Shown piece after piece: positions 4,322 to 31,489 of a stretch of 38,151 bases of DNA. Both the position numbers and the translations under genes were made by a program. This stretch comes from Flavobacteriales bacterium (lineage in GTDB: Bacteria > Bacteroidota > Bacteroidia > NORP154): positions 1-38,151 of the forward strand of contig DTRI01000094.1 in NCBI GenBank assembly GCA_012966015.1. The letters are read 5' to 3'. The notes beneath the pieces are model-generated. The model saw only the letters and a list, made by a program, of their open reading frames with translations, was not told the origin of the DNA and did not search any database. Each line of letters opens with the position of its first letter. The stretch's first letter is position 1.

Positions 4322-5248
4322 TTATAATCTTGTATATCCTTTCTCCTTGAGCAGATCGTTGGCGAGGTCTGGGTAATCTGTAATCAGCCCATCCACTCCT
4401 ACATCCAGTAGTTCTATCATGGAGCCTTTGTCATTAACTGTCCACGGAATAACTTTCATGTTATTCTGAGCAGCATACTCCACTAGCTCGGCGTTGACCA
4501 AAAAGAAATTAGGACTGTAGATTTCAGGAATGAAGCCAAGCAGCTTCAGGTTTTCTTCAAAGTCCGAATTTTCTGCAATTAAGAATGCCAACGCTATATC
4601 CGGGAATGTCCTATTGGCAACCATCAATATTCGAGGGTCAAAGGACTGGATGTTACACACTTTTTCAATATTTTTTTCCACGATGACTTCCATCAGCAAA
4701 TCCACGAACTCTGCAGGCTTGGGATGATATTTTTCATCCCATCCCTGCACGCTCTTCGCCTCAATATTGTAGTAAACCAGAGGTAGGGAATTTTTCTCTC
4801 TATACTCTTCAACCGCATCTATTACATCCGAGAGTAAGGGCTTATGTGTCTTCATTTTCGTCTGTTCAGGAAATCGATCGAGAAGCTTGGAACCACAGTC
4901 GAACTTTGCGATGTCTTCGTAATTCATCTTGTACAAATTAAAAGAATCCTCCATGTTCACTCCTATCTCCTGCCCTGTGGAATCGTAGCATATTTCTGGG
5001 GAAAGAAAAGGTTCATGGGAAAGAAGCACCTTTTTATCTTTGGTGATCACCACATCCATCTCCAGGGTCGAAACGCCTATTTCCAACGCTTTTATAAATC
5101 CAGCAATGGTATTTTCCGGCATCAGCCCCCGACAACCCCGGTGACCCTGCAAATCTATTTTGTTTTGTTCCTTCACTCCTTCTGAACAGCTAAAGCTCAA
5201 TACGCTGACAAGTAGCAGCACCAGGATCTTGACAGAATTATTACGCAT
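4322..5248 (-). CDS. Glycerophosphodiester phosphodiesterase (GDPD/GlpQ-like), probable lipoprotein
   Basis: QGHRGCRGLMPENT, LEMDVVITKD, NIEAKS, IQSFD, PWTVN, GVDGLITDYP. N-terminal hydrophobic signal ending LSFSC. Confidence 0.93.
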   Translation of the reverse strand: MRNNSVKILVLLLVSVLSFSCSEGVKEQNKIDLQGHRGCRGLMPENTIAGFIKALEIGVSTLEMDVVITKDKKVLLSHEPFLSPEICYDSTGQEIGVNMEDSFNLYKMNYEDIAKFDCGSKLLDRFPEQTKMKTHKPLLSDVIDAVEEYREKNSLPLVYYNIEAKSVQGWDEKYHPKPAEFVDLLMEVIVEKNIEKVCNIQSFDPRILMVANRTFPDIALAFLIAENSDFEENLKLLGFIPEIYSPNFFLVNAELVEYAAQNNMKVIPWTVNDKGSMIELLDVGVDGLITDYPDLANDLLKEKGYTRL

Positions 5249-6104
5249 CCGCCGGTTCTTCTATGTTGGATTCTGCAGTTTGTTGCAATATCCACGAATT
5301 CCAGCATTCAAGCACTTTCTCTTTTTCCGGATCATTGTGCGGCTCATGCGGCATTCCCTCCCACATCTGGAATGTAGCATTCGGCCCCGCCTGTTCCGCG
5401 AAGTCTTTGGAAGCTGCTGCGGATGTCAATTTATCTATACTTCCGTGTGTTACCAGGGCTGGAATATTCAGCTTGCTCGCATTATCAAGTGCCCAATAGC
5501 CAGCTTCATAAACATTCAAGAACAAGGACGCTGAGATCTTAGAATGCACCAATGGATCTTCCTCGTATGCTTTCACCACTGCCGGATCCCGGCTAAGGTC
5601 ATTGGCATCTAATTCATTGTCCTGTGTGAACGCAGGATAAATTCCTGACATAAACTTTCCAAGCGATACTTTAAAGGCAGGTGGCTCGAATGCTAATTTG
5701 AACCAGCCAGATGAAATTATTGCAGCAGCTAAAGGCTTAGTATCACCTCTAAGTATATAATTTGCCACCAAATTTCCGCCCATACTATGTCCATAAGTGA
5801 TTATTGGGATATGGGGAAACATGTCACGAGCATGTACAACTGACCGGCACACATCCGCCATGAGCACATCATAATTCAGGGCGTGGCCTCTTTTCCCATC
5901 CGATTTACCATGACCCCTGGCATCTGTACCTAAAACAGCTGTATTTCGTGCATTAAAATAGTCGGCTACATGCTGGTAACGCCCTATATGTTCACCGAGT
6001 CCGTGAACAATTAAGAGTACTCTTTCTGGATTTTCTGGAATCCAGCTGGTGCCTCTTAGCAAGGTGCCATCATCTGCGGTAATCTCATAGTTATCCTGAC
6101 GCAT
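5241..6104 (-). CDS. Alpha/beta hydrolase, lysophospholipase/monoglyceride lipase family (Hydrolase_4)
   Basis: VHGLGEHIGRY, DARGHGKSDGKRG, GHSMGG nucleophile elbow, HGSIDKL, HEPHN. Overlaps the GDPD start by 8 nt. Confidence 0.92.
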   Translation of the reverse strand: MRQDNYEITADDGTLLRGTSWIPENPERVLLIVHGLGEHIGRYQHVADYFNARNTAVLGTDARGHGKSDGKRGHALNYDVLMADVCRSVVHARDMFPHIPIITYGHSMGGNLVANYILRGDTKPLAAAIISSGWFKLAFEPPAFKVSLGKFMSGIYPAFTQDNELDANDLSRDPAVVKAYEEDPLVHSKISASLFLNVYEAGYWALDNASKLNIPALVTHGSIDKLTSAAASKDFAEQAGPNATFQMWEGMPHEPHNDPEKEKVLECWNSWILQQTAESNIEEPADA

Positions 6105-6130
6105 AGAATTGTGAAATTAGGGTTGGGAAG

Positions 6131-6138
6131 CAAAGATA
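6131..6138 (-). promoter_or_regulatory. Bacteroidota sigma-A -7 element (TATCTTTG) for the hydrolase-GDPD operon
   Basis: Reverse complement of caaagata matches TAnnTTTG, 27 nt upstream of the ATG at 6104. Confidence 0.6.
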
Positions 6139-6233
6139 GCAAAGGGCAGAAGAAATATTGCCTTTTGAATAGACGAATAAAATTTCAGCTTCAGGCTAAA
6201 ATGCATGTGCGATGTTTTGGTTGGTTACACAAT

Positions 6234-7211
6234 TTAACGCTCGATGATCAATTTGTTTGTGTACACGCTGTTTTTAGAGGAATATCTGAGGAAATAAAAG
6301 CCTTCATCCAGCGCAGAAAAATTCACCTTCACAATATTATTTGAGTTAGCAACATCGTTAGAAAACACTTCCTGACCCAGGTAATTTAGCAATTGCAAAT
6401 TATAGGACTCACCGGGAAACGGTGACTCCATCTCAAAATTACCGTTACTCGGGTTGGGATAAATTACGAGCTGTTTATCCTGTGGCTTGGATAACTCACC
6501 CGTACCCAGATTCAACAGCAGATTGTCAATGTCAGCTACAATGTCTTTCGGAGCTTTGTGAAACCAACCGTGTTTAACGTACACGGATCCATCCGTATTG
6601 ATCAGGTAAGCGTTGTTTGGAGCATAGGCCATGTTCGTCCAATATTCGTTGCATGGGCCGTCAATAAGAACGGGCACATCAATGGTCATGGCGTTTAACA
6701 TGGTAGATACGATTGTTTTTCTCTCGCCATACGTTGTTGGCTGCCGGTGTAAAATTCCTTCACTTTGGTTGGCAGCTGTGGTCCAAACCTGGCCGCTGTA
6801 TGGGCTTACATCAACATCTGGGTGCGGTTCAACAACGTAAATAATGAATGTCGAGAGCTGGCTGCTGTACGTTGCTTGAATTTGATTGATTACGGGAATC
6901 TTTCCTCTGTACACCGGACAGGTATAGCTCCCACTAATCAGAAGAAGGGGTTTGCCTTTTTGGAGTTCGGTCAATATATCGGTGCCAGCTCCATTCACAT
7001 CATAGAAGTTAAAGTGTAGTAGTGTATCGGCAACCTGTATTCCAGGAGTTTCATACGTTCCATCAGGATCTAGATAAACGCCAATTGTGCAAATAGGGTC
7101 ACCATCACCAGGCAAGGAATTTACACCAATGGTGGGCCCCAGAACAATTTGGGCCATTGCGAAATGAGAGATGGCCAGCGCTATGGCAACAAATGCTAGT
7201 TTGATTTTCAT
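6234..7211 (-). CDS. Secreted iodothyronine-deiodinase-like (thioredoxin-fold) protein with T9SS type A sorting domain
   Basis: Signal peptide ending AMA-Q. KPLLLISGSYTCP, FIIYVVEPHP and VPVLIDGPCNE..APNNAYLIN resemble deiodinase blocks. C-terminal IYPNPSNG...EGFYFLRY...KLIIER CTD. Confidence 0.75.
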   Translation of the reverse strand: MKIKLAFVAIALAISHFAMAQIVLGPTIGVNSLPGDGDPICTIGVYLDPDGTYETPGIQVADTLLHFNFYDVNGAGTDILTELQKGKPLLLISGSYTCPVYRGKIPVINQIQATYSSQLSTFIIYVVEPHPDVDVSPYSGQVWTTAANQSEGILHRQPTTYGERKTIVSTMLNAMTIDVPVLIDGPCNEYWTNMAYAPNNAYLINTDGSVYVKHGWFHKAPKDIVADIDNLLLNLGTGELSKPQDKQLVIYPNPSNGNFEMESPFPGESYNLQLLNYLGQEVFSNDVANSNNIVKVNFSALDEGFYFLRYSSKNSVYTNKLIIER

Positions 7212-7353
7212 GGTGTGCGATTTAGGGGTTTAGCTGTTTTGCACTGTTGGACATTCGCTAAATTCAAAGGTTTAACGATTATTATCGATGAGCTATAATA
7301 AGTGCATTGCTGATGCTCTAAGTTACAAATTAATGGGCTATTTAAAATTAACT

Positions 7354-7361
7354 TAATTTTG
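7354..7361 (+). promoter_or_regulatory. -7 promoter element (TAATTTTG) upstream of the REP-like hairpin, RAYT remnant and lysA
   Basis: Exact TAnnTTTG match. Confidence 0.55.
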
Positions 7362-7373
7362 CCGACCGCTGAA

Positions 7374-7417
7374 TAACCAGCTTTTTCAAAGTTTTGAACT
7401 TTGGAAAAAGCTGGTTA
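7374..7417. repeat. REP-like inverted repeat (44 bp hairpin)
   Basis: taaccagctttttc-aaagtt-ttg-aacttt-g-gaaaaagctggtta: 14-bp perfect outer arms plus 6-bp inner arms with one bulge, 10 nt before the transposase remnant. Confidence 0.8.
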
Positions 7418-7427
7418 AACTATAAGG

Positions 7428-7661
7428 ATGTTTATACCTCTAGAACCTGACAAATACTATCATATATGCAATCACGCAAATGACAGCGAAAATCTAAAGG
7501 ATTGGGAATTTTCTTCTTACAACTCCATACTATCTGCACAAGAATCAAATTTAGTCAGCAAAGAGGTGATAATATGGTTTAAAGATCGAGATAACTTTAT
7601 CTATTGCCATGAATCATTGACAACGGATGTTGAGGTTAAATTACAAATTGAAACTCTATGA
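7428..7661 (+). pseudogene. Internally deleted REP-associated tyrosine transposase (RAYT / IS200-IS605 Y1-like) remnant
   Basis: N-terminal PLEPDKYYHICNHAN..ENL is joined directly to the C-terminal DWEFSSY..ILS...EV..WF...F...H block. The central HUH and catalytic-Tyr (YIHxNP) region is absent. Adjacent REP-like hairpin. Confidence 0.65.
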
Positions 7662-8890
7662 ATCTAGTAAACAACAGATACGAAACCGGAGGAGTAGACC
7701 TGCTTAACATTGCAGAGGAGTTTGGCACACCTGTTTATGTGTACGACGCTCAAAAGATACGGGATCAATATAAGCTGCTCACTTCTGCATTTTCCGATGT
7801 AAATGTTAAAATTCGTTATGCCTGCAAGGCGCTGACCAATCAGAATATTCTCAGGTTGTTGAAAGGACTCGGATCAGGGTTAGACACCGTTTCTATTGAA
7901 GAGGTGGAGCTGGGAATAAAGGCTGGCTACCAACCTGAAGAAATTATTTTCACACCCAACGGTGTTTCAATTGAGGAGATTAACAAGGCAGTTGAAATTG
8001 GTGTGACCATAAACATAGACAACATTAGCATCCTGGAGCAATTTGGAAATATCCATGGGGCAAAGGTTCCTATCTGTATCAGGTTGAACCCACATATTCT
8101 GGCAGGAGGTAATTATCAAATATCGACCGGGCATATTGACTCTAAATTTGGTATTTCTATTCACCAGCTGCGGCATGTGGAGAGAATAGTAGAATCTACA
8201 GGGTTAAAAGTTAACGGCTTACACATGCACACAGGATCAGAAATAAAGAACATTGACGTATTTTTAAGAGGCGTTGATATTTTATTTGAGTCTACAAGCT
8301 ATTTTAAGGAGCTGGACTTCATCGACCTCGGCAGCGGATTTAAAGTAGCCTCCGCTCCAGATGAAGATGCCACCGACATTATAGCGCTAGGCAAGGCCCT
8401 GTCGCAACGATTCAATGAATTTTGCAAAGAATACGGTAAAGAGCTTGAGCTTTGGTTTGAGCCTGGTAAATTTTTAGTGAGTGAAGCGGGTACCTTCCTG
8501 GCTAAAGTGAATGTGGTTAAACAAACTACAGCCACCGTCTTCGCGGGTGTTGATTCTGGGTTCAATCATTTGATTCGCCCCATGTTTTATAACGCATATC
8601 ATCATATATGTAACATATCCAACGCCGCAGGAGTTGAGAGGATCTATACTGTTTCGGGCTATATCTGCGAAACGGACAATTTTGCCTGGGACAGAAAAAT
8701 TACGGAGATAAAGGAAGGCGACATACTTGCTTTCCAAAATGCAGGCGCCTATGGTTTTGTGATGGCCTCCAACTACAATTCCAGGCTTCGTCCACCGGAG
8801 GTTTTAATAAATAACGGAAAAGCACAGCTGATCAGAAAACGTGAAGAGCTGGAAGATAATCTCAGGAATGAGATAGAAGTTTCACTCTGA
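7658..8890 (+). CDS. lysA: Diaminopimelate decarboxylase
   Basis: FGTPVYVYD, YACKA (PLP Lys), SKFGI, GLHMHTGS, FEPGKFLV, GYICETD, GAYG..MASNYNSR. Confidence 0.97.
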   Translation: MNLVNNRYETGGVDLLNIAEEFGTPVYVYDAQKIRDQYKLLTSAFSDVNVKIRYACKALTNQNILRLLKGLGSGLDTVSIEEVELGIKAGYQPEEIIFTPNGVSIEEINKAVEIGVTINIDNISILEQFGNIHGAKVPICIRLNPHILAGGNYQISTGHIDSKFGISIHQLRHVERIVESTGLKVNGLHMHTGSEIKNIDVFLRGVDILFESTSYFKELDFIDLGSGFKVASAPDEDATDIIALGKALSQRFNEFCKEYGKELELWFEPGKFLVSEAGTFLAKVNVVKQTTATVFAGVDSGFNHLIRPMFYNAYHHICNISNAAGVERIYTVSGYICETDNFAWDRKITEIKEGDILAFQNAGAYGFVMASNYNSRLRPPEVLINNGKAQLIRKREELEDNLRNEIEVSL

Positions 8891-9043: not shown

Positions 9044-10081
9044 TTATTGAACGCGAATATAAGCTCCTTCATCCATTCTAGCTAATGTGCGACCAATAGA
9101 TGCTAATTCAAGCCCTTGAGCATTCGAAAAGTCTATAAATTCATTTTCACTTCCTTCCTTGACAGCCACCAATAACCCACCGCTTGTTTGAGGATCACAG
9201 AGCACATTTCGCTGCTCATCGTTCAATGCTACTATTTTATTTCCATAGCTCTCCCAGTTTCTCTTTGTACCTCCGGGTATACACTTCAAATCCAAGTATT
9301 TGTAAATACTGGCGATGGTTGGTATTGCCTTATAATGGAGCTCCGCATTAACGGAAGCGCCCTCACATAGCTCCAGTAAGTGCCCTAACAAACCAAATCC
9401 GGTAACATCAGTCATGGCCATAACATATTCCAACTTAGAGAATTCAGCACCCACCGAATTTAACTTTACCATTATATCCCGTGCAATGTTCTTATCCCCG
9501 GGTTCCAACAATTCTTTTTTCTGAGCGGTGGAGAGTATTCCCACACCTAGCGGTTTGGTGAGAAACAAACTGCAGCCAGCAGCTGCCTCTGAATTTCTTT
9601 TGATATTGGCGATATCCACAATGCCAGTCACTGCCAAACCGAATAGCGGCTCTGGGTTATCGATACTGTGACCTCCAGCCAGGGTAATACCTGCCTCTGC
9701 ACACATGGATCGGCTGCCCTCTATTACGTGATTGGCTATTTCTGCCGAAAGCTCATTGATCGGCCAACCGAGTACCGCTATGGCTGTGACTGGAGTACCA
9801 CCCATGGCGTACACATCGCTTATGGCATTGGCTGAAGCAATTCTCCCAAAATCAAACGCATCATCAACTATGGGCATAAAAAAGTCTGTTGTGCTAATGA
9901 TTGCTTTTCCATTTCCAATATCAATTACCGCCGCATCATCTCTGGTGTCACTGCCCACCAACAGATTTGGATCGTCCGGTGCCTGATGGACACTTGCAAG
10001 AATTTCCTCTAACAACAAAGGCGATATTTTACAACCACAGCCAGCACCATGACTGTATTTTGTAAGTTTTATGCTTTCCAT
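9044..10081 (-). CDS. selD: Selenide, water dikinase (selenophosphate synthetase), Cys-type
   Basis: LTKYSHGAGCGCKI, DDAAV, STTDFFMPIVDD, ANAISDVYAMGG, GGHSID, TDVTGFGLLGH, DPQTSGGLL. Confidence 0.97.
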   Translation of the reverse strand: MESIKLTKYSHGAGCGCKISPLLLEEILASVHQAPDDPNLLVGSDTRDDAAVIDIGNGKAIISTTDFFMPIVDDAFDFGRIASANAISDVYAMGGTPVTAIAVLGWPINELSAEIANHVIEGSRSMCAEAGITLAGGHSIDNPEPLFGLAVTGIVDIANIKRNSEAAAGCSLFLTKPLGVGILSTAQKKELLEPGDKNIARDIMVKLNSVGAEFSKLEYVMAMTDVTGFGLLGHLLELCEGASVNAELHYKAIPTIASIYKYLDLKCIPGGTKRNWESYGNKIVALNDEQRNVLCDPQTSGGLLVAVKEGSENEFIDFSNAQGLELASIGRTLARMDEGAYIRVQ

Positions 10082-11115
10082 AAATTCATATTATTTTCTT
10101 GAAGAAACTGATCAACGAGCTGAGCGTTAAGGACATGATCACCAGATTTAACTGGCAAAGCATGAACTTGTACAGGCTCTCTTTTATTAAGGCCGAAAGT
10201 ATATGCTTTGTCATAATATTGTAATGCAATCTTCACAAATTCCGTATAATCCTTTGATTCAAGTGCCGCTATAGCATTCTGTGCGTTTAGTCCACCCAGG
10301 CGCTTTCTTATTCTCAGGATTCCATCTCTGAGCTGCTCATCAGGGAAGTTCGTGTATTCCTTTGCAATACGTTCTGCTCGCTGTTCTACGCCCATTTCTA
10401 TAGCCACAACCGGGCTGTTACGTATCTGCGCGTATAGATCATCCGGAATCCGAACCGATCCGATTGCCTGGCTCTCATCCTCAAGAATAACAGGTTTAGA
10501 AATGTTATAGTCCTTCCACGCTTCCCAAAGATCGTTTTGAAATTGCTCCGTAGTTGGTTGGGTATTCTGTCCCAAAGCTCCAAAAGAAGAGCCCTTATGA
10601 CAGGCTAACTCCTCCAAATCAATTGTCTGATGACCACGTTCTGATAATTGCTTTAAGATATCGGTCTTCCCACTACCCGTCATCCCGCCAAGAATCAGCA
10701 ACTTCCAGTTCAGCTTAAAACAATCATACACCTTATTGCGATAAGCCTTGTAACCCCTAACCAACACTTTAACATTGTACCCATTATCAGACAAGTATTC
10801 AGAAAATCGTTCGCTTCTCAACCCTCCGCGCCAACAGTGCACAAGCAGATTTTCATTGTCATCAATTTTGGCAACCGTATCCATAAACTCCTGAATTTTG
10901 GGTTCAACTATGTTTAAAGCGATCTCAATCGCTTTCTCCCGGCCATTTTGCCTAAAGGCCGTTCCAACTATGGCCCGTTCCTCGTTGTTCAATATTGGTA
11001 TATTAATAGCACCTGGAATACAACCGCTTTCAAATTCCCTGGGTGAACGTACGTCTATCACCTTATCCGTCTTCCTTAATTCAATAAATTCTTCTATGTC
11101 CACTTTTATAATCAC
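10069..11115 (-). CDS. mnmH: tRNA 2-selenouridine(34) synthase (SelU/YbbB)
   Basis: Rhodanese domain DVRSPREF...HCWRGGLRS, GYKAYR, P-loop GMTGSGKT, DLEELACHKGSSFG, EDES. GTG start. Overlaps selD by 13 nt. Confidence 0.96.
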   Translation of the reverse strand: MIIKVDIEEFIELRKTDKVIDVRSPREFESGCIPGAINIPILNNEERAIVGTAFRQNGREKAIEIALNIVEPKIQEFMDTVAKIDDNENLLVHCWRGGLRSERFSEYLSDNGYNVKVLVRGYKAYRNKVYDCFKLNWKLLILGGMTGSGKTDILKQLSERGHQTIDLEELACHKGSSFGALGQNTQPTTEQFQNDLWEAWKDYNISKPVILEDESQAIGSVRIPDDLYAQIRNSPVVAIEMGVEQRAERIAKEYTNFPDEQLRDGILRIRKRLGGLNAQNAIAALESKDYTEFVKIALQYYDKAYTFGLNKREPVQVHALPVKSGDHVLNAQLVDQFLQENNMNLWKA

Positions 11116-13899: not shown

Positions 13900-16800
13900 A
13901 TGAGACTTTATTTATCCCTTTTGATTATTCCTTTATTGGTTGTTACATCTGATGCATTATCTCAAAAATCTAAGAAAGGTGATAAGTTCAGTGGTAAATA
14001 CAAGAGCGCCACTTTCAGCGGACTAAAGTTGAGAAGTATTGGGCCTGCCCTCACCTCAGGAAGAATCTCCGATATTGCCGTTAACCCAAATAAAACCAGC
14101 GAATACTATGTAGCAGTTGCTTCTGGTGGTGTATGGAAAACGAGCAATTCAGGAAATACCTACACACCTATTTTCGATGGGCAAGGAAGCTATTCCATCG
14201 GTTGTGTAACTATTGATCCCAACAATCCTCATATCGTTTGGGTAGGTACCGGTGAAAACAACAACCAGCGCAGCGTAGCCTATGGAGATGGTGTGTATAA
14301 ATCTGAGGATGGAGGAAAATCCTGGAACAACATGGGCCTAAAAACCTCTGAGCATATAGGTAAGATCATTGTCAAGCCGGGTAACTCAAATGTGATTTAT
14401 GTAGCCGCCATGGGGCCCTTGTGGAATGCAGGTGGTGAGCGTGGTGTGTACAAGAGCAATAACGGTGGTGAAACCTGGAAACCAATGCTGGAAATTGATG
14501 AACACACCGGAGCCACCGATCTGGTTATGGATCCGAGAAATTCAGATGTATTGTATGCTTCATTCGAGCAGAGAAGGCGACATGTGTTTACTTACATTGG
14601 CGGTGGACCTGGTTCAGGAATCCATAAAACAACCGATGGCGGACAAACATGGAAAAAGTTAACCACTGGATTGCCCAAGGTGGATATGGGAAGAATAGGA
14701 CTGGCCATCTCGCCCGTGAATCCAGATTATATATTTGCCATCATTGAGGCATCGGATAAAAAAGGTGGTTTCTTTAGAAGTACCAATCGTGGAGCGAGCT
14801 GGGACAAGATGAGTGATTACTCGACCAGCGGCAACTATTACCAGGAAATTATCTGTGACCCCAAAGACGTGGACAAGATATTCTCCATGAACACCTGGCT
14901 GCACCACACTGAAGATGGCGGCAAGAACTTTAAAAAGACGGGTGAGAAGAGCAAGCACGTTGACAATCATACGATCTGGATAGACCCAGGTGACACTGAT
15001 CATTGGCTGATTGGATGTGATGGCGGCATTTACGAGACCTGGGATCATGCTGAGAACTGGCAATACAAAGCCAACCTACCCGTCACACAATTCTATAAGC
15101 TGGCAATAGACAATGCCGAGCCCTTTTACAATGTGTATGGGGGAACACAGGACAACAATACACAAGGAGGCCCCTCAAGGACCATCAACAATTCGGGTAT
15201 CGTGAACTCAGATTGGTATATAACGCTTGGCGGAGATGGCTTTGAAGCGGCTATTGATCCCAAAGATCCCAACATAGTTTACTCACAGGCACAGTATGGC
15301 TGGCTGGCGAGGTATGATAAAAAAAGTGGAGAAAAATTAGGGATAAAACCCATGACTGGAAAAGGTGAACCAGGCTTGCGATGGAATTGGGATGCCCCCT
15401 TGCTCATCAGTCCACACAATAACAAGCGTTTATATTTCGCCGCCAATATCCTGTTCCGCAGTGACGACAGAGGCAGCAATTGGAAATCCATTAGCGGTGA
15501 CCTCACCAAGCAGATAGACCGAAATAAGCTCGAAGTAATGGGAAAAGTTTGGAGCATGGATGCTGTAATGAAGAACAAGTCGACAACAATTTATGGGAAC
15601 TGTGTTGCCCTGGATGAATCACCATTGCAAGAGAACCTGATTTATGTAGGTACTGATGATGGCCTGATACAGATTACAGAAAATGCAGGTACCTCGTGGA
15701 CAAAAATGGCTAAATTCCCCGGCATTCCCGAAACTACTTACGTGAACGACATTGTCGCCTCGAAGCATAGCGCTAGCGTAGTCTATGCAACTTTTAATAA
15801 TCACAAGAGAGGCGACTTTAAACCCTACATCCTGAAAAGCGCTGACAAAGGCAAATCCTGGACGGCAATACAGGGTAATTTACCTGCAAGGGGCTCGGTT
15901 TACGCGATTGCTGAAGATCATGAAAATCCGAAGTTGCTTTTTGCGGGAACTGAATTCGGACTATTCTTTACTATTAGTGGAGGCAATGAGTGGACACAAT
16001 TGAAAAGTGGCTTACCCATCATTGCGGTAAGAGACCTTGAAATTCAAAAAAGAGAAAATGACCTGGTTCTGGGAACATTTGGGAGAGGATTTTACATACT
16101 GGATGATTATTCGGCACTGCGCACCTATTCTGATGAGCTGATGAAAAAGGATGCACATATTTTTCCAATAAAAGATGCGCTGATGTATGTGGATTCCAGG
16201 CCCTTGGGAAACAGGGGCAAATCGAGCCAGGGCGAATCTTTCTATAACGCTGAAAATCCTCCTCTCGGAGCTGTATTTACCTTTTTAATGACCGATACGT
16301 TAACTACCCTAAAAGAAACCCGTCAGAAACAGGAAAAGAAATTGAAGAAGGCGGGCACGGCAATCCCCTTCCCTTCACCAGCTGAAATTCGGGTGGAAGA
16401 CAATGAGGAAAAGCCATACTTACTGTTTACCGTACGTGATGGGAAGAGCAATGTGGTCAGAAAAATAAAATCAGAAACGAAGAATGGCATTAACAGAGTT
16501 GTTTGGGATTTTAGATACACGGCCACCACACCCATCAAACTGAAAGAAGACAAGGTGAGCAGATATAGTGAAGCATCGTCTGGGCCGCTCGCTTTACCTG
16601 GAAATTATACGGTGTCCATGTCTAAGAGCGTTAACGGTGTAATCTCAGAATTGGTAGAACCACAGAAATTTGTATGTGTGAAGCTCAACAACACTTCACT
16701 TCCGGCAAAAGACAATGTAGAATTGCTAAAATTTGAAAATCAGGTGAATGAGTTGAGGAGAGCTGTACTGGCAACGCGCAAAGTAAAAAGTGAATCAGAT

Positions 16801-17184
16801 AATCGTTTAGAGCATATCAAGATTGCGGTGAGGTCCGCGCCAGAGGTTCCTATTGAAATGATGGAACAAATTAAAACACTAGAAAAGGAACTTTTAGAAA
16901 TAACCTTAAAGTTAAATGGAGACCACAGTCTTAGAAAACGAGAATTTGAAATACCGTCTTCTATCTCCGATCGGGTTGAAATAATCATATGGAGCATGTG
17001 GCGCGCGACGACAGCACCCACGCAAACCAATAGGGATGGCTATAGAATAGCTGCTGAGGAATTTGGCCCACTGCTGGAGGAATTGAAGGGAGTGGTAAGT
17101 AAGATTGATGCAATTGAAGAAAAGCTTGAAGACTTTAAAGCTCCTTTTACTCCAGGTAGATTTCCAACCTGGAATAATGAGTAG
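13900..17184 (+). CDS. Large exported VPS10/sortilin-like BNR (Asp-box) beta-propeller protein (often annotated glycosyl hydrolase)
   Basis: Signal peptide. RSIGPALTSGRISD. Many Asp boxes (KSEDGGKSW, KTTDGGQTW, RSTNRGASW, RSDDRGSNW). GGTQDN. C-terminal helical region. Confidence 0.88.
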   Translation: MRLYLSLLIIPLLVVTSDALSQKSKKGDKFSGKYKSATFSGLKLRSIGPALTSGRISDIAVNPNKTSEYYVAVASGGVWKTSNSGNTYTPIFDGQGSYSIGCVTIDPNNPHIVWVGTGENNNQRSVAYGDGVYKSEDGGKSWNNMGLKTSEHIGKIIVKPGNSNVIYVAAMGPLWNAGGERGVYKSNNGGETWKPMLEIDEHTGATDLVMDPRNSDVLYASFEQRRRHVFTYIGGGPGSGIHKTTDGGQTWKKLTTGLPKVDMGRIGLAISPVNPDYIFAIIEASDKKGGFFRSTNRGASWDKMSDYSTSGNYYQEIICDPKDVDKIFSMNTWLHHTEDGGKNFKKTGEKSKHVDNHTIWIDPGDTDHWLIGCDGGIYETWDHAENWQYKANLPVTQFYKLAIDNAEPFYNVYGGTQDNNTQGGPSRTINNSGIVNSDWYITLGGDGFEAAIDPKDPNIVYSQAQYGWLARYDKKSGEKLGIKPMTGKGEPGLRWNWDAPLLISPHNNKRLYFAANILFRSDDRGSNWKSISGDLTKQIDRNKLEVMGKVWSMDAVMKNKSTTIYGNCVALDESPLQENLIYVGTDDGLIQITENAGTSWTKMAKFPGIPETTYVNDIVASKHSASVVYATFNNHKRGDFKPYILKSADKGKSWTAIQGNLPARGSVYAIAEDHENPKLLFAGTEFGLFFTISGGNEWTQLKSGLPIIAVRDLEIQKRENDLVLGTFGRGFYILDDYSALRTYSDELMKKDAHIFPIKDALMYVDSRPLGNRGKSSQGESFYNAENPPLGAVFTFLMTDTLTTLKETRQKQEKKLKKAGTAIPFPSPAEIRVEDNEEKPYLLFTVRDGKSNVVRKIKSETKNGINRVVWDFRYTATTPIKLKEDKVSRYSEASSGPLALPGNYTVSMSKSVNGVISELVEPQKFVCVKLNNTSLPAKDNVELLKFENQVNELRRAVLATRKVKSESDNRLEHIKIAVRSAPEVPIEMMEQIKTLEKELLEITLKLNGDHSLRKREFEIPSSISDRVEIIIWSMWRATTAPTQTNRDGYRIAAEEFGPLLEELKGVVSKIDAIEEKLEDFKAPFTPGRFPTWNNE

Positions 17185-19398: not shown

Positions 19399-21012
19399 TC
19401 ATAAAACAATTATTTTTAAGCTTCCATTGACGTCCCCTGATTGGATTCTGAGAAAATACAGGGCAGGACGCAATTCAACTGACATGCTGCTGCCACTGAA
19501 ACCGCTCTGCCTGAAAACCACTCTTCCACGAATGTCTGTAATCGTGATAAAAGCTGCATTTACAATTTGATTGAATTGAACCCAGCCTCCTACAATGGGA
19601 TTGACCATGGTTATTGATTCAGCTTTTACACCTTCCATTTCGGAAAGAACAACAGTTGCACAAGAATCAGAATTGGAGTTTTGATCTTCGATGATCCCCT
19701 GAGGTGTGAGGTCCTTACCGACAAATCCAGCGTAGCTGCCAGGGTATTTTTCCGCTCTAAAAATCGTATTGTCACCCTGGGCAATGGTATCATATTGATC
19801 GAAAAAGCTGGCGCCAACTGGATTTTTGTAGGTCCACAAGTGATCCCCGTTTTTTGTGATTTCTGATACTTGCCCACGGGAAGATTCACATATTAAGAAG
19901 TTTCCATTGGGCAGTGGGAAAGCACCGCACTTCTTGCCCTCTAACATGGTTACACCGAAAAATGCTCCGTTCCAGGACCATTCAAAATCAGCAGGCAAAA
20001 ATCTATTTGTCTGCTTTTGATAGATACCACCTGATATTTCAGGGGTTATTAAATGAACTGAGCTGAACGTACCGGTACCATCGCCGCCATTGTTGTAAAC
20101 AGATATCTTATCAGCATCCAGGTATCCCGATTCCACCCATCTGCAATCATGTTGCAGGAATAACTGTTGATTGGAAGGGCCACCCTGTCTATAGATCTGT
20201 GGGTTCCCCCAACGCCAAAGGAAATCACCTCCCATATTTGCGTTTCCGCCCGTATGTCCCGCGGCTTCCGCAGTGGTGGTGCTGTGGTCTATGATGTATA
20301 TCTCGCTAAGATGTCTTGCCGAAATAATAATCTGATCCAGAGAAGGATTATAGTCCACAGCATTGACGTGGGTCCAATCACTGTTATGAGAACTGGGAAA
20401 GTTTAAATCGAGCAGTTCGGGGTGGTCTGCGACCACATCGTAATTGAGTTTTGTGCTATCGAGATCCTGAACGAAATGGTCTATGAATTTCCATTCCCAA
20501 ACCACACTGGCATCATTGGTTCCAATAGGCTGTAACTCGACCAGTTTATCCAGCTTGAAAACGGGGCCAACATTGCCTGAGTCTCTTCCCGCAGCAATAA
20601 TCTCCGCTTTAGTATAAGTATCGGTCAGCAAACAGAGTATGTTCCCATTAGGAAGTGGCTCAATATCGTGGTGCTGCCTCAGTCCATTGTCTTTCATAGC
20701 ATAGGACCAGAGTAAGGTATTGTCCCAATCCCGTAGCTCAAGAGAATCGGCGCCTGCACGGAGCAATGTCCCATCTTCCAACAGGTAGCATGTGGAGCCG
20801 GGTGTCTCAGAAAAATTCCATTGATTGACGATTTCTCCACAGTTGTCTATTAGGTACACATTGTTGTTCAGGCCGGGAGTAAACAGGGTGTATCCCTCAG
20901 AAGTATCTGCTTCAGCTAGAAGCAGGCCCAAATTGGGTGCTTGAGCATAGCACATCAGTTCAATGAGCAGGCTCGCAGACAAGGCAACTAATCTATGTGG
21001 ATACGAATTCAT
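19399..21012 (-). CDS. Aryl-sulfate sulfotransferase (ASST)-family beta-propeller with T9SS sorting domain
   Basis: EGYTLF, QHHDIEPLPNGN, DWTHVNAVDY, ISARHLSE, RWGNPQ.Y, QHD, FRAEKY. C-terminal ITDIRGRVV...ALYFLRI...KIIVL CTD. Confidence 0.85.
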   Translation of the reverse strand: MNSYPHRLVALSASLLIELMCYAQAPNLGLLLAEADTSEGYTLFTPGLNNNVYLIDNCGEIVNQWNFSETPGSTCYLLEDGTLLRAGADSLELRDWDNTLLWSYAMKDNGLRQHHDIEPLPNGNILCLLTDTYTKAEIIAAGRDSGNVGPVFKLDKLVELQPIGTNDASVVWEWKFIDHFVQDLDSTKLNYDVVADHPELLDLNFPSSHNSDWTHVNAVDYNPSLDQIIISARHLSEIYIIDHSTTTAEAAGHTGGNANMGGDFLWRWGNPQIYRQGGPSNQQLFLQHDCRWVESGYLDADKISVYNNGGDGTGTFSSVHLITPEISGGIYQKQTNRFLPADFEWSWNGAFFGVTMLEGKKCGAFPLPNGNFLICESSRGQVSEITKNGDHLWTYKNPVGASFFDQYDTIAQGDNTIFRAEKYPGSYAGFVGKDLTPQGIIEDQNSNSDSCATVVLSEMEGVKAESITMVNPIVGGWVQFNQIVNAAFITITDIRGRVVFRQSGFSGSSMSVELRPALYFLRIQSGDVNGSLKIIVL

Positions 21013-22784: not shown

Positions 22785-22933
22785 ATTATACCCACAGCAA
22801 CATCTTATGTCATTTCTTTCTGCTTGTCATTCTGCTTGGGCCAGATTGCAATATTCTGAGGTATTAATGTTATTTTTATAGTCCTGAAGGCAGCGCTGAT
22901 AAAGAAAACAATCCACGTATTATCTTGTATCTC

Positions 22934-25510
22934 ATGAAAAAAACAGTCTATATTTTGTTATTCGTTTTCATCGTTTCAACTAATTACCTAACTGCACAGG
23001 TAATGATTAACGAATACTCAGCATCAAACCTCAGGAACTTTTTAGACAATAACTCAAAAACGGAAGACTGGATAGAGCTGTATAATCCTACAGGTGCAAC
23101 AATTGACCTGGGAGGAATGTATCTTTCAGACAAGCCGGGCAAACCAACAAAGTGGCTAATACCTTCAGGAATAACCATTCCAGCTGGTGGATTTGCAAGA
23201 TTTTGGTGTTCAGGAAGAGACACAATTGTCGGAACTGATTACCATACCAATTTCAAATTATCACAGACTACAGGTAAGGATTCCGTAGTTCTTTCGACGG
23301 TAACAGGGGTTATTTACGAGAAATGGCCTTTAACAATGACGTTAGTAGAACATTCCAATGCCAGATCAACTGATGGGAGTCCAACCTGGATGACCTGTAC
23401 CAACCCAACGCTGGGCTCATCCAACAATGCCGCTCCTATGTTTACGGGCTATGCGGCCGACCCTACCATGTCGTTGATCGGAGGATTTTATGCTGGAACG
23501 CAAACCATTACAATACAGACAACAGAACCTAATTCCATTCTCTATTACACAACGGATGGAACAGCCCCAACAACTGGTTCTACACAATATGTGTCGGCGC
23601 TTACCATTAGCAGCACGCAAATAGTTAAAGCACGGGTTTACAGCAATGACCCCCAGATTCTACCCGGACGGGTTGAAACAAATACTTACTTTATAGACGA
23701 TACGTTCAGCCTTGCAGTTATATCAGTAGGCGCAGATGAATTGCTCAATCTTGCTAATGCGGTAACAAGTGCCGCGATTCCGATCGGGTCCATAGAGTAC
23801 TTCGATATTAACGGACAACGGGTTGCAACTTCTTATGGTGATCTGAATAGGCATGGCCAGGACTCATGGGTACTTGATCAAAGGAGTATAGACTGGGTTT
23901 CTCGTGATGAGATGGGATATAGCAAAGCCATCTTCGCTCAACTTTTCCATTATTCGACAAGGGATGAATACCAACGTATCATCATGAGAGCATCTGGTGA
24001 CGATAATTACCCTGCACTTGAAGCACCAGCTATTTTCCCTGATAACGCACATACCGGAGCCACACATGTACGCGATGAATACGTTCACACACTGGCCCTG
24101 GAAGGCGGCATGAAAGTAGATGTTCGGGCAGTTGAACGCATCGTCGTCTATTTTAACGGCCAATATTGGGGTGTTTATGGTTTGCGGGAACGGCCAGTGG
24201 ACCACGACTACATCAAGGAGTATTACAATCAGGGTAAATATGATATACAATATCTATCTACCTGGGGAAATACAGAGGCAGAGTACGGAGGTATTACGGC
24301 TTTTTCAGACTGGGGGCTGCTGCGGAATTTTATATTGAACAACGATATGAGCCTGGCCAACAATTACCAGGTCTGCAAGGATAATATTCGACTTACAAGC
24401 CTGATAGACTACATGATTGCCAACCTGAATTCAGTTGCTAAAGACTGGTTGAATTATAATACCGGCTGGTGGAGAGGGCTGGACCCATCCGGCGATCATA
24501 AGAAATGGGGCTATATTCTTTGGGACAATGATGCCACGTTCGATTATTACATCAATTACACTCAAATCCCCAATAGTAACCCGAATGCAGAGCCCTGTGA
24601 TATTGATGATATAGCAGCTTATATGGATCAATTCTTTGACGACGGAAGCGGCAACAATGATGATGTAGGTAAGCACGAAAAGATATTCTTAAAGTTACAA
24701 GCGGAGAATCCGGAGTTTCAACAGCTCTACTATTCACGACAGGCCGATTTGATGAACACGGTATATACCTGCGACAACATGCTGAATACCATCGACAGCA
24801 TGGTTGCGACCATTGCTCCGGAGATGCCGCGACAAATAACACGTTGGGGTGGAAGCATGAGCGAATGGAATTCCAATGTAGCAGATTTGAGAAGCTTTAT
24901 TGAACAGCGTTGTCTCCTGTTAGACGACGGTATGGTCAATTGCTTTAACCTAACTGGCCCCTATCCGCTGACAATAATGGTAGAACCGGCTGGAGCAGGC
25001 ACAGTCGATCTCAACACACTTACATTGACAAACTTTCCCTGGACCGGGAATTATTTTGGGAATATGGATAACCTATTGGAGGCAATTCCTATCGGGGGCA
25101 ATTCCTTCATAGAATGGCAAACTACTTCTGGCAATGTAATAAGCCCTTCGACCGACAGTGCCAGCGCGAGGATCACCCTTATTCAGTCAGATACTTTAAT
25201 CGCGGTGTTTACTCCGCCAGTGGGAATATACAACCCCAAAGCAGGGTTTAGCTTTTCTTCCTATCCAGCAGTTGTGAATACGAACTTAATGGTTAAATAT
25301 GAACTGGATCAGGAAATGGATGTGAGCCTTAAGCTATATTCTTTATACGGTGTTGAGGTAGCTGATTTTCAGAATATCAAGGGACAAAAGGAATCAGGAA
25401 ATCACGAGGAACAGCTTAGCCTGAGCGCTGACCTGGCTCCTGGCGTGTACTTTCTTCAATTCCGTGCGGATGATGCGGAGCAGACCACGAAGATTGTTTT
25501 GGCGAGATAA
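22934..25510 (+). CDS. Secreted CotH-family kinase with lamin-tail domain, Fn3-associated domain and T9SS sorting domain
   Basis: Signal peptide ending LTA-Q. VMINEY..EDWIELYN (LTD). LYYTTDGTAPT. YFNGQYWGVYGLRE, DWLNYN and ILWDNDATF (CotH kinase motifs). LAPGVYFLQ...KIVLAR CTD. ATG at 22934 preferred over TTG at 22925. Confidence 0.88.
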   Translation: MKKTVYILLFVFIVSTNYLTAQVMINEYSASNLRNFLDNNSKTEDWIELYNPTGATIDLGGMYLSDKPGKPTKWLIPSGITIPAGGFARFWCSGRDTIVGTDYHTNFKLSQTTGKDSVVLSTVTGVIYEKWPLTMTLVEHSNARSTDGSPTWMTCTNPTLGSSNNAAPMFTGYAADPTMSLIGGFYAGTQTITIQTTEPNSILYYTTDGTAPTTGSTQYVSALTISSTQIVKARVYSNDPQILPGRVETNTYFIDDTFSLAVISVGADELLNLANAVTSAAIPIGSIEYFDINGQRVATSYGDLNRHGQDSWVLDQRSIDWVSRDEMGYSKAIFAQLFHYSTRDEYQRIIMRASGDDNYPALEAPAIFPDNAHTGATHVRDEYVHTLALEGGMKVDVRAVERIVVYFNGQYWGVYGLRERPVDHDYIKEYYNQGKYDIQYLSTWGNTEAEYGGITAFSDWGLLRNFILNNDMSLANNYQVCKDNIRLTSLIDYMIANLNSVAKDWLNYNTGWWRGLDPSGDHKKWGYILWDNDATFDYYINYTQIPNSNPNAEPCDIDDIAAYMDQFFDDGSGNNDDVGKHEKIFLKLQAENPEFQQLYYSRQADLMNTVYTCDNMLNTIDSMVATIAPEMPRQITRWGGSMSEWNSNVADLRSFIEQRCLLLDDGMVNCFNLTGPYPLTIMVEPAGAGTVDLNTLTLTNFPWTGNYFGNMDNLLEAIPIGGNSFIEWQTTSGNVISPSTDSASARITLIQSDTLIAVFTPPVGIYNPKAGFSFSSYPAVVNTNLMVKYELDQEMDVSLKLYSLYGVEVADFQNIKGQKESGNHEEQLSLSADLAPGVYFLQFRADDAEQTTKIVLAR

Positions 25511-28302: not shown

Positions 28303-28704
28303 ATGTCTGAACAACCCAAATCTGAACAACCCAAAGGAGAGCTTACAATCCAAGTGCTTGCCATGCCAGCGGACACCAATCCATCTGGTGATGTTTTTGG
28401 CGGCTGGTTACTCTCACAAATGGATATTGCGGGAGGTGTTTACTGCAGAAAGATAGCCAAAGGCCGAGTTGTAACGGTGGCACTGGACTCTACCACTTTC
28501 AATTTACCTGTTTTTGTTGGTGATACGCTTTGCTGTTACGTGGAATTGGTAAAAAGGGGCCATACTTCTATCACAGTTAAAATTGAAGCATGGGTAACCC
28601 GGGAATACGATATTGAAAAGAGCATTAAGGTAACGGAAGGCGTTTACACCTATGTTAAAGTAGATCAAGAGCGTCATCCAATACCATTACCTGGCAATGA
28701 ATAA
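28303..28704 (+). CDS. Hotdog-fold acyl-CoA thioesterase (YciA-like)
   Basis: AMPADTNPSGDVFGGWLLSQMDIAG, GRVVTVA, PVFVGD, GHTSI. Confidence 0.92.
   Translation: MSEQPKSEQPKGELTIQVLAMPADTNPSGDVFGGWLLSQMDIAGGVYCRKIAKGRVVTVALDSTTFNLPVFVGDTLCCYVELVKRGHTSITVKIEAWVTREYDIEKSIKVTEGVYTYVKVDQERHPIPLPGNE
28306..28335 (+). repeat. Perfect 15-bp tandem duplication (tctgaacaacccaaa x2, SEQPK x2)
   Basis: Directly visible at the 5' end of the thioesterase. Confidence 0.95.
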
Positions 28705-29530
28705 GCTCCACTTCCAAATCGTGCATCTCAATAGACTTAGAATTCTCATTCTGGGAGTGGTAATTGTATTGTCATTAAATAAGAACGCACATTCACAAAC
28801 TCCTCCAGATTTTACGCTCTATGATACAGACAGCGTTTCGTGGAATCTATATTCTTTATTGGGAAGCGGGAAAACCGTCCTCCTGGATTTTTTCTATGCT
28901 TCATGTGTGCCCTGCCAAACATTTACACCTGAAATCGAACAACTATATCAGGATTATGGAGCTGGTACCGGAGATCTAATCGTTCTTGGCATTTCTGATC
29001 GTGACAACAACGCAGTACTGGGCTCATTTGCTGCCGATTACAACGTTACTTATCCAAGCGGGGGCACCAAAGGAAATGGAAATACAATTACTAGTTTGTA
29101 CATGGGCTGGTTCTCCTTCTCGGGTTGGCCACAATATGCGGTAGTCTGCACGGATACAAGCATCTTTTGGGGCGTAACACCCTCAATAGGGATGGCTGCG
29201 CTTCGGAACAAGATAGACACCTGCGATATTGTAACTTCCTCTCGTCAATTAGACCTAAACCACAACATATCTGAGCTAAAGGTATCGGTCTATCCTCAAC
29301 CTGCTGATCAGTCGCTAAGCGTACATATAGAAAATGCTTCCAGGGCCCATCTGAAAATCAAATTATTGAATCTGCTGGGTTCAGTGATTAAAGAATATGA
29401 TTTAAGAAACTATATGGGATCCTCAAGGCTCGTAATAAATACGGCTGAGCTCAATAGCGGCACATACTTAATGCAAGTTGAAGAATTGGGACATACTAGA
29501 CGTAACGTCAAGATTGTAGTTACACATTAG
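28697..29530 (+). CDS. Secreted TlpA/redoxin-type thioredoxin-fold protein (CVPC) with T9SS sorting domain
   Basis: Signal ending AHS-Q. PDFTLYD, GKTVLLDFFYASCVPC, cis-Pro-type GWPQY. VYPQPA...LNSGTYLMQV...KIVVTH CTD. Overlaps the thioesterase by 8 nt. Confidence 0.85.
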   Translation: MNKLHFQIVHLNRLRILILGVVIVLSLNKNAHSQTPPDFTLYDTDSVSWNLYSLLGSGKTVLLDFFYASCVPCQTFTPEIEQLYQDYGAGTGDLIVLGISDRDNNAVLGSFAADYNVTYPSGGTKGNGNTITSLYMGWFSFSGWPQYAVVCTDTSIFWGVTPSIGMAALRNKIDTCDIVTSSRQLDLNHNISELKVSVYPQPADQSLSVHIENASRAHLKIKLLNLLGSVIKEYDLRNYMGSSRLVINTAELNSGTYLMQVEELGHTRRNVKIVVTH

Positions 29531-29542
29531 CGGATAATCCAC

Positions 29543-29550
29543 TATCTTTG
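29543..29550 (+). promoter_or_regulatory. -7 promoter element (TATCTTTG)
   Basis: Exact TAnnTTTG match 25 nt upstream of the ATG at 29576. Confidence 0.55.
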
Positions 29551-29575
29551 AGACAGTAAAATAAAACATAAGCGC

Positions 29576-31048: not shown

Positions 31049-31078
31049 CCACAATATTTAACCATTTAAAATTCTAAC

Positions 31079-31489
31079 ATGAAAAGATCATCTACTGCTG
31101 TCTGGGAAGGTAGCGGGAAAGAAGGCTCAGGTCATATTTCCTCTGATTCCAACATACTTAACGATACGCCATATTCCTTTTTATCGAGGTTTGAAGATGG
31201 TTCCGGAACCAATCCCGAAGAATTAATTGCTGCGGCTCACGCAGGTTGTTTTGCAATGAAGCTCAGTTTTATATTGGGAGCAGCGGGTTTCACAGCAGAT
31301 AAACTGGAAGCAAAATGTGAGGTAACATTAGACGATGGAGCAATTACATCCTCGCATATTAGCTTAAGTGCTTTTGTCCCTGGAATTGATGAAGACACGT
31401 TTGCCGCTTCAGTGAAGGATGCAGAGGAGAATTGTCCGATTTCCAAGGTGTTGAATACGAATATCACGGTCGATTATTCCTTGAACTAG
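31079..31489 (+). CDS. osmC: OsmC-family peroxiredoxin
   Basis: AVWEGSGKEGSG, YSFLSRFEDG.GTNPEELIAAAHAGCF, CPISK. Confidence 0.95.
   Translation: MKRSSTAVWEGSGKEGSGHISSDSNILNDTPYSFLSRFEDGSGTNPEELIAAAHAGCFAMKLSFILGAAGFTADKLEAKCEVTLDDGAITSSHISLSAFVPGIDEDTFAASVKDAEENCPISKVLNTNITVDYSLN

Follow-up and report, generated by a model that had tools for sequence, protein, structure and literature searches.

The contig DTRI01000094.1 of a Flavobacteriales metagenome-assembled genome (MAG; assembly GCA_012966015.1) was analysed over positions 1-38,151, a stretch which we call the window. An open reading frame (ORF) on the minus strand, 6234..7211, begins with ATG according to the ORF list and the sequence, and encodes a 325-residue protein whose catalytic domain is a genuine yet distant relative of the iodothyronine deiodinases Dio1-3. 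Cysteine (Cys98) stands where the deiodinases have selenocysteine, and the protein ends in a type IX secretion system (T9SS) C-terminal sorting domain (CTD). Longer relatives carry an extra immunoglobulin (Ig)-like domain with a cysteine pair, here called X, and several short relatives have a stand-alone X gene next to the enzyme gene, a new observation. We propose, with confidence that stops just short of even, that the gene product is a Sec-exported, T9SS-secreted or surface-attached enzyme of the deiodinase superfamily which uses a nucleophilic Cys98 in place of selenocysteine and has the X domain as its cysteine relay. Papers denoted by a PMC number are cited from extracts of their text.

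A deiodinase-like domain in a T9SS cargo protein

Besides the CTD, the sole Pfam match of the protein is PF00837 (T4_deiodinase; E 2.1e-5, 24.4 bits against a gathering cut-off of 27), and NCBIfam NF038285 (deiodinase_rel, 'deiodinase family protein') matches residues 56-215 with E 5.9e-21 and 75.3 bits, below its cut-off of 250. No match of this protein to AhpC-TSA, Redoxin or Thioredoxin was found in Pfam at E <= 10, and its only redoxin-type match in NCBIfam is MauD (E 0.051). By sequence similarity the protein belongs to the known bacterial deiodinase-like superfamily, yet neither PF00837 nor NF038285 scores it above the curated cut-off.

Searches against all PDB sequences gave the same picture: The catalytic domain matched mouse Dio2 (E 3.1e-4) and Dio3 (E 9.7e-4), which were the sole significant chains of thioredoxin (Trx) fold (E < 0.01). 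The next-best such chain was DsbF (E 0.15), and a designed repeat protein was also matched via a short low-complexity stretch. A profile of 119 family members returned Dio3 at E 1.9e-8 and Dio2 at E 2.3e-5, with no other Trx-fold chain at E <= 0.01. Among these members (n=119, E <= 1e-3), PF00837 matches 107 (best E 1.7e-12), Redoxin 21 and AhpC-TSA 15, while NF038285 matches all 119 (best E 8.2e-28).

An AlphaFold2 model built from the family alignment has a mean predicted local distance difference test (pLDDT) score of 92.8. The model displays a Trx/peroxiredoxin (Prx) fold with an N-terminal betaN1/betaN2 module and an insertion after strand beta2, as in the deiodinases. In Foldseek searches with this model, Dio3 (PDB code 4TR3) ranks first and Dio2 (9H48) second, and the two also head the other fold search. 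The structural alignments, with about 17% identity, cover 175 of 188 residues of Dio3 and 171 of 183 of Dio2, and so include the region of the deiodinase insertion, whose place is occupied here by residues 132-160. Rows of the ESM Atlas for the enzyme belong to thioredoxin-like or deiodinase clusters; with scores all below 0.9, they are leads only.

Two points weigh against our reading. The PF00837 score falls short of its gathering cut-off, and TlpA/ResA-type chains tie with the deiodinases in Z (16.2-15.6, within 1 unit). The rival is an ordinary TlpA-, ResA- or AhpC-type thiol-disulfide oxidoreductase which merely resembles deiodinases. However, TlpA/ResA-type chains have ~140 residues and leave ~40 residues of the model unmatched, and this extra part aligns with the deiodinases. 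The protein also has no CxxC motif, no redoxin match beyond the marginal one to MauD, and significant sequence similarity only to Dio2 and Dio3. We regard the ordinary oxidoreductase as largely refuted and scarcely tenable; the outcome that would have contradicted the preliminary description of this gene, an ordinary AhpC/TlpA redoxin that lacks the insertion, was not observed.

HMMER alignments to Dio2 and Dio3, both crystallised as selenocysteine-to-cysteine constructs, run without gaps from the active site through the E-A-H-P block. GSYTCPVY is in register with GSATCPPF of Dio2 and GSCTCPPF of Dio3, and YVVEPHP with YIEEAHP and YIDEAHP (family consensus YTVEAHP). Cys98 thereby corresponds to selenocysteine 170 (Sec170) of Dio3, which bears out its previously suggested position. 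Using the residue numbers and roles given for deiodinases (PMC9141512), Thr97 and Ser95 map to the relay hydroxyls, Tyr125 to the relay Tyr, Glu128 to Glu200 of Dio3, His130-Pro131 to the H-P that comes next in the deiodinase block, and Tyr96 to the proximal Cys (Cys168; Ala in Dio2). T97, C98, P99, H130 and P131 do not vary across 121 aligned sequences; E128 is found in 120 of them and Y125 in 118. The proximal cysteine is absent here, its position being taken by Tyr96, and 110 of the 121 relatives have Tyr there. The motif blocks quoted in the preliminary description were all located, KPLLLISGSYTCP at residues 87-99, FIIYVVEPHP at 122-131, HRQPTTYGERK at 155-165, VPVLIDGPCNE at 179-189 and APNNAYLINTDG at 197-208, with Cys98 at the residue and codon it had given (Table 1).

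The protein contains three cysteines only, 41, 98 and 187. No CxxC motif and no Prx PxxxTxxC-type site is found in it, C98 being followed by P-V-Y. Cys41, in the N-terminal extension, and Cys187, in the D-G-P-C-N block, are invariant in the family and absent together from two remote Bacteroidota subfamilies. We infer that they form a structural disulfide, in which case Cys98 would be the only thiol free to react. Cys187 is also the sole cysteine after Cys98, at a distance of 89 residues, whereas the distal cysteine of deiodinases lies 69-76 residues after the selenocysteine (PMC9141512).

The export signals are those of a T9SS type A cargo. Residues 250-323 match PF18962 (50.1 bits, cut-off 27) and TIGR04183 (42.1 bits, cut-off 23), and the CTD resembles the CTDs of T9SS substrates solved by cryo-electron microscopy (8glk_D, E 1.5e-6; 8glj_D, E 1.7e-4; PDB sequences). 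Of the two profile searches proposed in the preliminary description, TIGR04183 scored above its cut-off and T4_deiodinase gave a significant E value but not a score above its own. The N-terminus reads, by eye, as a cleavable signal peptide, MKIKLAFVAIALAISHFAMA, followed by Gln21, with a helix at residues 2-17 in the model, and offers no counterpart to the N-terminal membrane anchor of Dio1-3, which are obligate homodimers. All but one of 121 aligned sequences retain Gln21, as expected under the Bacteroidetes Q-rule of a Gln after the signal-peptide cleavage site (PMC5837995). The host MAG (3.5 Mb in 421 contigs, 78.8% complete) encodes two T9SS components, SprA (2682 bits) and the sortase PorU (1393 bits), both above their cut-offs, and five further proteins of the window match the CTD model. 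The architecture described earlier, a signal peptide, a deiodinase-like Trx-fold domain and a T9SS CTD, thus holds, the signal peptide by reading and the rest by PF00837/NF038285, PF18962 and TIGR04183.

The preliminary description had also suggested looking for TGA codons at the Cys98 position in homologs. None was found: the catalytic site has a Cys codon in 80 of 80 genomic loci and in both copies of the host genome. SelA was not found in this 78.8% complete genome, and no tRNA-Sec scored above the cut-off there, the three best candidates being tRNA-Ser or tRNA-Leu. A selD gene (NF002098, 526 bits; 9044-10081), 2 kb away from the deiodinase-like gene, overlaps mnmH, encoding tRNA 2-selenouridine synthase (358 bits; the pair spans 9044-11115, minus strand), and selenium use in this genome is therefore explained by tRNA modification.

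The X domain, fused to the enzyme or encoded beside it

The family is small and patchy, and nearly all of it is found in uncultured Bacteroidota. At E <= 1e-3, a word-indexed search found 242 proteins out of 1739 candidates. Their lengths cluster in two classes, ~320 and ~445 residues, and the names given at source are no more specific than 'T9SS type A sorting domain-containing protein' and 'hypothetical'. An exhaustive search of 1.84 billion representatives gave 152 proteins at E <= 1e-30, 489 at E <= 1e-10 and 1065 at E <= 1e-3. A search of one genome per species (185,579 species) gave 222 relatives, and 80 loci kept from these were used for locus analyses, some counts being made over 81. 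All 80 kept loci are titled MAG or 'uncultured', and come from Saprospiraceae, Lewinellaceae, Flavobacteriales, Chitinophagales, Cytophagales and a few Ignavibacteria/Kapaibacterium. When 400 other genomes were sampled evenly across the phylum, one contained a close relative (E 6e-71) and four contained remote ones. Two further Bacteroidota deiodinase-like subfamilies were seen as well: one combines T9SS export with a G-S-V-S-C-N site and E-A-H-P (L085 1354-2382, plus strand), the other is a 225-residue protein without signal peptide, with G-S-I-T-C-P and E-A-H-P (L084 1309-1986, minus strand), and both match NF038285 below its cut-off.

The two length classes differ by one domain. Long forms have ~125 extra residues, the Ig-like X domain, between the catalytic domain and the CTD. 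The host genome carries both forms: the protein of the window is short, and a paralog on contig C16 (3017-3652; L002 841-2217, minus strand; 458 residues, 40% identical in the catalytic domain) represents the long class. At short-form loci, the next gene often encodes a protein of ~232 residues with a signal peptide, a domain without assigned family and a CTD. The N-terminal parts of five such neighbors match residues ~242-375 of long-form proteins (E 1e-19 to 1e-37). Over 81 loci, X is fused in all 63 long-form loci, and a stand-alone X gene adjoins the enzyme gene in five of nine true short-form loci. In this count L069 was added to the short forms by hand, L016, L048, L060 and L062 are short by ORF length and represent truncated or broken genes, and five loci missed by the motif filter are unclassed.

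In an all-against-all blastp comparison of 966 ORFs from the 81 loci, no recurrent neighbor other than X was found, the next cluster being present at 7 of 81 loci. A FastTree phylogeny of 121 catalytic domains, rooted at its midpoint, has a clade of 28 sequences (support 0.968) that takes in 27 of the 30 short forms, and this clustering fits a single split or fusion event.

In the host genome, the stand-alone X gene is on contig C335, unlinked to the gene of the window. It encodes 238 residues with the motif W79-x4-C84-x-D86-x-C88. The genome of the closest relative (G401) has an ortholog of it, 71% identical and likewise unlinked. There is no X gene beside the enzyme gene of the window, and a 231-residue ORF at 31598-32293 was rejected as an X protein (best blastp E 0.35). 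Four X residues, C88, W79, N58 and N130, do not vary across 80 sequences, while C84 and D86 are each kept in at least 90%. An outer-membrane-like gene lies beside the X gene of the host genome, and no match to it was found near the other loci.

X gave no match to PDB sequences at E < 0.2. In a wide structural search, DsbD-N-like chains were not among the 50 rows listed for X, which does not by itself exclude that fold. ESM Atlas rows for X are unnamed T9SS proteins of Bacteroidota and Ignavibacteriota, with scores below 0.9, and serve as leads only. A stand-alone X-like T9SS protein of 241 residues with the motif G-W-x4-C-x-D-x-C was seen in genome G301 (L104 1435-2160, plus strand).

A predicted complex and the chemistry it could support

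The complex of enzyme residues 22-240 and residues 28-152 of the C335 X protein was folded using the two family alignments. Its score is 0.72 (runs 0.80, 0.69 and 0.72), and the best of three controls scored 0.01 (range 0.00-0.01). For calibration, 116 of 157 solved complexes attain a mark of 0.72, as do 2 of 215 mismatched pairs; with alignments of our own as input, these counts apply only approximately. Contacts agree between runs to at least 96%, and the pLDDT of the partner is 92 or higher. On the enzyme side the predicted interface is formed by Cys98-Pro99-Val100, Pro129-His130, Ser136, residues 138-147, Pro198, Trp216 and 219-221, and it takes in residues 136 and 138-149 of the insertion. 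X contributes Cys84 and residues 86-93, and its Cys88 contacts Cys98. X Asp86 is modelled against enzyme residues 100, 216, 219 and 220, residue 219 being Lys or Arg in 109 of 121 sequences. The most conserved patches of both proteins meet in this interface.

This arrangement suggests how the enzyme could turn over. The Cys98 thiolate would take an electrophilic atom from the substrate, with a proton supplied by the Ser/Thr-Glu network. This atom would be a halonium if the substrate is an iodo- or bromo-aromatic, in the manner of deiodinases, or an oxygen if it is a peroxide, in the manner of peroxiredoxins. Cys88 of X would then attack the oxidised Cys98 to form an inter-domain disulfide, and Cys84 would resolve this disulfide and free Cys98. 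The resolving cysteines would be supplied in trans, giving a re-reduction cascade of the Prx-like kind proposed for deiodinases (PMC11592359). In its more specific form, in which T9SS delivers a two-part surface thiol redox machine and the C-x-D-x-C loop of a PorA-like Ig domain plugs the active site as a trans-acting resolving and relay pair, we think the proposal less likely than not. The preliminary description had left the extracellular reductant as a question, and X, fused or adjacent in relatives, is a concrete lead.

The conserved nucleophile and proton-relay residues of deiodinases (S95, T97, C98, Y125, E128 and H130) would also suit a stand-alone extracellular reductive dehalogenase of small iodo- or bromophenolics such as iodotyrosines and bromophenols, recycled by environmental thiols, with X as a binding or spacer module. 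Deiodinases remain active when selenocysteine is replaced by cysteine, and natural cysteine deiodinases exist in invertebrates (PMC9141512). Nine of 23 listed sequencing runs contain at least half of the window's sampled words (the best-matching run may be the source sample), and they are labelled hydrothermal vent, seawater or marine metagenome, with one coded organism and one unlabelled. Organohalogens are common in marine and vent habitats. However, the MAG titles of relatives name wastewater, lake and soil as well as marine sources, so the family is not tied to halogen-rich habitats. A thiol pool is lacking outside the cell, no substrate-uptake gene is a conserved neighbor, and counterparts of the thyronine-binding residues could not be established. 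Moreover, a small halogenated substrate would need to enter the cleft next to Cys98, which the loop of X occupies in the complex model. This weakens the earlier simple picture of a lone secreted dehalogenase, which we consider unlikely.

The pair could also be a split, Prx-like surface thiol peroxidase, in which Cys98 is peroxidatic, X is resolving and the substrate is H2O2 or an organic hydroperoxide. Deiodinases share a Prx-type N-terminal module and a Prx-like re-reduction scheme (PMC11592359). The AhpC-TSA and Redoxin matches of some family members point in this direction, and so do two other products of the window, an OsmC-like protein and a second T9SS redoxin. However, the protein of the window itself has no such match, and the conserved Pro198-Asn199 occupies what we take to be the position of the Prx catalytic Arg. 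The E-x-H-P block is likewise present, and to our knowledge it is characteristic of deiodinases and not of peroxiredoxins. A peroxidase of this kind therefore seems improbable to us.

A different use of the same residues would be to bind metal: Cys98, His130 and the C-x-D-x-C loop of X could form an inter-domain Cu, Zn or Fe site, much as Sco-type Trx-fold proteins bind metal through CxxxC plus His. Cys98, Pro129-His130 and X residues 84 and 86-88 are all within the predicted interface. D86, however, is modelled against residues 100, 216, 219 and 220 and not toward Cys98, no Sco-like protein is among the fold-search rows listed, and it is not obvious what a metal site would need the conserved Ser/Thr/Tyr/Glu relay for. 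We consider a metal site very improbable.

Several observations weigh against the relay. X-like proteins with the same W..C-x-D-x-C motif are present in G301, a genome in which the enzyme family was not found with the query, and so X is not exclusive to the enzyme and may be a general T9SS cargo module without a family name. X was not found with the query in two of the four short-form genomes searched, which are MAGs of unknown completeness, the X gene of the host genome is on a different contig from the enzyme gene, and the neighboring X of L004 does not have the first Cys of the pair. The docking expresses how confident a model is, and is no measurement. The Cys41-Cys187 disulfide is putative, and so is any counterpart of the deiodinase distal Cys, relay His or substrate clamp. 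Finally, the relay would shift the reductant problem one step outward, to whatever re-reduces X outside the cell.

The occurrence of X-like proteins without the enzyme suggests another explanation, namely that X is the usual Ig-like stabilising domain of T9SS cargo, that the docking is artefactual and that the protein is a lone one-cysteine enzyme with another partner and substrate. Ig-like domains of cargo have been reported to be needed for stability in secretion (reference 46 of PMC7712824). A spacer, however, would not be expected to persist as a separate adjacent gene after fission, as X does at five of nine short-form loci, and the model brings together the best-conserved surface of each protein while its controls score 0.00-0.01, which also argues against an artefact. 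We give this explanation a small share of the probability.

If the cysteine relay by X is real, it would show a way to sustain turnover of a thiol enzyme on the outside of Gram-negative cells, and may tell of the ancestral, pre-thyroid job of the deiodinase fold. The enzyme should be easy to express because it uses cysteine, and since gene fusion and fission together with a confident docking model provide a candidate partner, Cys98 chemistry should be accessible with purified parts.

Features of the window and comparison with known systems

Table 1 Features of the deiodinase-like gene, with positions in the window.
Feature	Position	Strand	Basis or remark
Whole gene, 325 codons and TAA stop (6234-6236)	6234..7211	-	T9SS-exported Cys-type deiodinase-like protein, short form; ORF list, sequence, domain matches
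Predicted signal peptide, residues 1-20, cleavage between AMA and Q21	7152..7211	-	Read by eye; model helix 2-17; Q21 conservation
Family-specific N-terminal extension, residues 21-56, with invariant Cys41	7044..7151	-	Conservation; pLDDT 90-97
Deiodinase-like Trx/Prx-fold catalytic domain, residues 57-237	6501..7043	-	
Cys98 codon TGT, aligned with selenocysteine of Dio2/Dio3	6918..6920	-	Alignments; invariant 121/121
Y125-V-V-E128-P-H130-P131 block, counterpart of deiodinase Y-I-E-E-A-H-P	6819..6839	-	Ungapped Dio2/Dio3 alignment; E128 120/121, H130 121/121
Insertion, strand beta2 to next long helix, residues 132-160	6732..6818	-	Secondary structure, Dio3/Dio2 coverage
Invariant Cys187 codon (D-G-P-C-N block)	6651..6653	-	Conservation
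T9SS type A C-terminal sorting domain, residues 250-325	6237..6464	-	PF18962, TIGR04183, matches to 8glk_D and 8glj_D

A scan of positions 5900-7700 for promoters and terminators found sites no commoner than in shuffled sequences, and none of the runs found to contain sequence of the window, among the 23 listed, is an RNA run. An operon with the adjacent alpha/beta hydrolase (5241-6104) and GDPD (4322-5248) genes was considered and rejected: the arrangement recurs only in the 81%-identical relative L003, and we therefore gave it no weight. On the other side of the gene, a 77-residue ORF without assigned family (7428-7661, plus strand) ends at the start of lysA (7658-8890). Its homolog in L003 has 206 residues, so the copy in the window looks truncated.

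Farther away, positions 28697-31489 (plus strand) encode a second T9SS-exported Trx-fold protein (28697-29530), 277 residues long, AhpC-TSA/ResA-like and with a C-V-P-C motif, followed by a 490-residue T9SS protein without assigned family and then the OsmC-like protein. The C-V-P-C redoxin is a possible candidate for a surface redox partner of the enzyme system. The window also contains a 537-residue arylsulfotransferase-like (ASST) protein ~12 kb from the deiodinase-like gene (19399-21012, minus strand) and three other large secreted proteins, a CotH-kinase-like T9SS protein with lamin-tail and chitobiase-C domains (22925-25510, plus strand), a 1094-residue sortilin/BNR protein (13900-17184, plus strand) and an SprB-repeat/PKD T9SS protein (32516-35431, plus strand).

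The catalytic domain shares with Dio1-3 (PF00837; mouse Dio3 4TR3, mouse Dio2 9H48) the Trx/Prx fold, the N-terminal beta hairpin, the insertion after beta2 and, in register, the G-S-x-T-[U/C]-P and Y-x-x-E-x-H-P blocks. As is the case with Dio2, it does not have the proximal Cys. It differs in having Cys for selenocysteine, in being equipped with a signal peptide and T9SS CTD where Dio1-3 have an N-terminal membrane anchor, and in a longer spacing between the catalytic and the later cysteine. The N-terminal extension that carries Cys41 is specific to the family, and so is the pairing with an Ig-like Cys-pair domain a difference from Dio1-3. Thyroid hormones are not the expected substrate here.

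Bacterial deiodinase-like proteins in both Cys and selenocysteine forms were described from marine metagenomes in 2005 (Zhang, Fomenko & Gladyshev; PMC1088965) and have had no function assigned to them since, and a 2026 review lists a PF00837 UxxC selenoprotein as still uncharacterised (PMC13188914). Our family resembles the metagenomic proteins and NF038285 in its bacterial PF00837-type Trx fold. It differs from the listed selenoprotein, which has UxxC, in having C-P-V-[FY] with no second Cys. T9SS export and an X partner are not mentioned in the extracts of PMC1088965 and PMC13188914. In the library searched, no paper combined 'deiodinase' and 'T9SS', and none that used the Pfam name dealt with this family.

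For X, the comparison is with PorA of Porphyromonas gingivalis (PGN_0123), which consists of an N-terminal Ig-like domain (6KJK) and a CTD. The two have 11% identity in the structural alignment and no detectable sequence similarity. PorA is a surface signal to PorXY-SigP whose ligand is unknown (PMC7712824).

The proposed logic of the pair has parallels inside the cell. The Ig-fold N-terminal domain of DsbD, with its Cys pair, reduces the Trx-fold partners DsbC and CcmG, and typical 2-Cys peroxiredoxins take their resolving Cys from another chain. By analogy, a Cys pair on a beta-sandwich or on another chain would dock on the nucleophilic Cys of a Trx-fold protein. The electron source is known for those systems, which work in the periplasm or cytoplasm, whereas here enzyme and X alike are T9SS cargo without a known source, and the Trx-fold partner has one Cys and not CxxC. 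If the proposal is true, no bacterial deiodinase-like protein would have had a partner identified before X, and the pair would be an extracellular counterpart of the relay between DsbD-N and Trx-fold proteins, serving reductive dehalogenation or peroxide removal.

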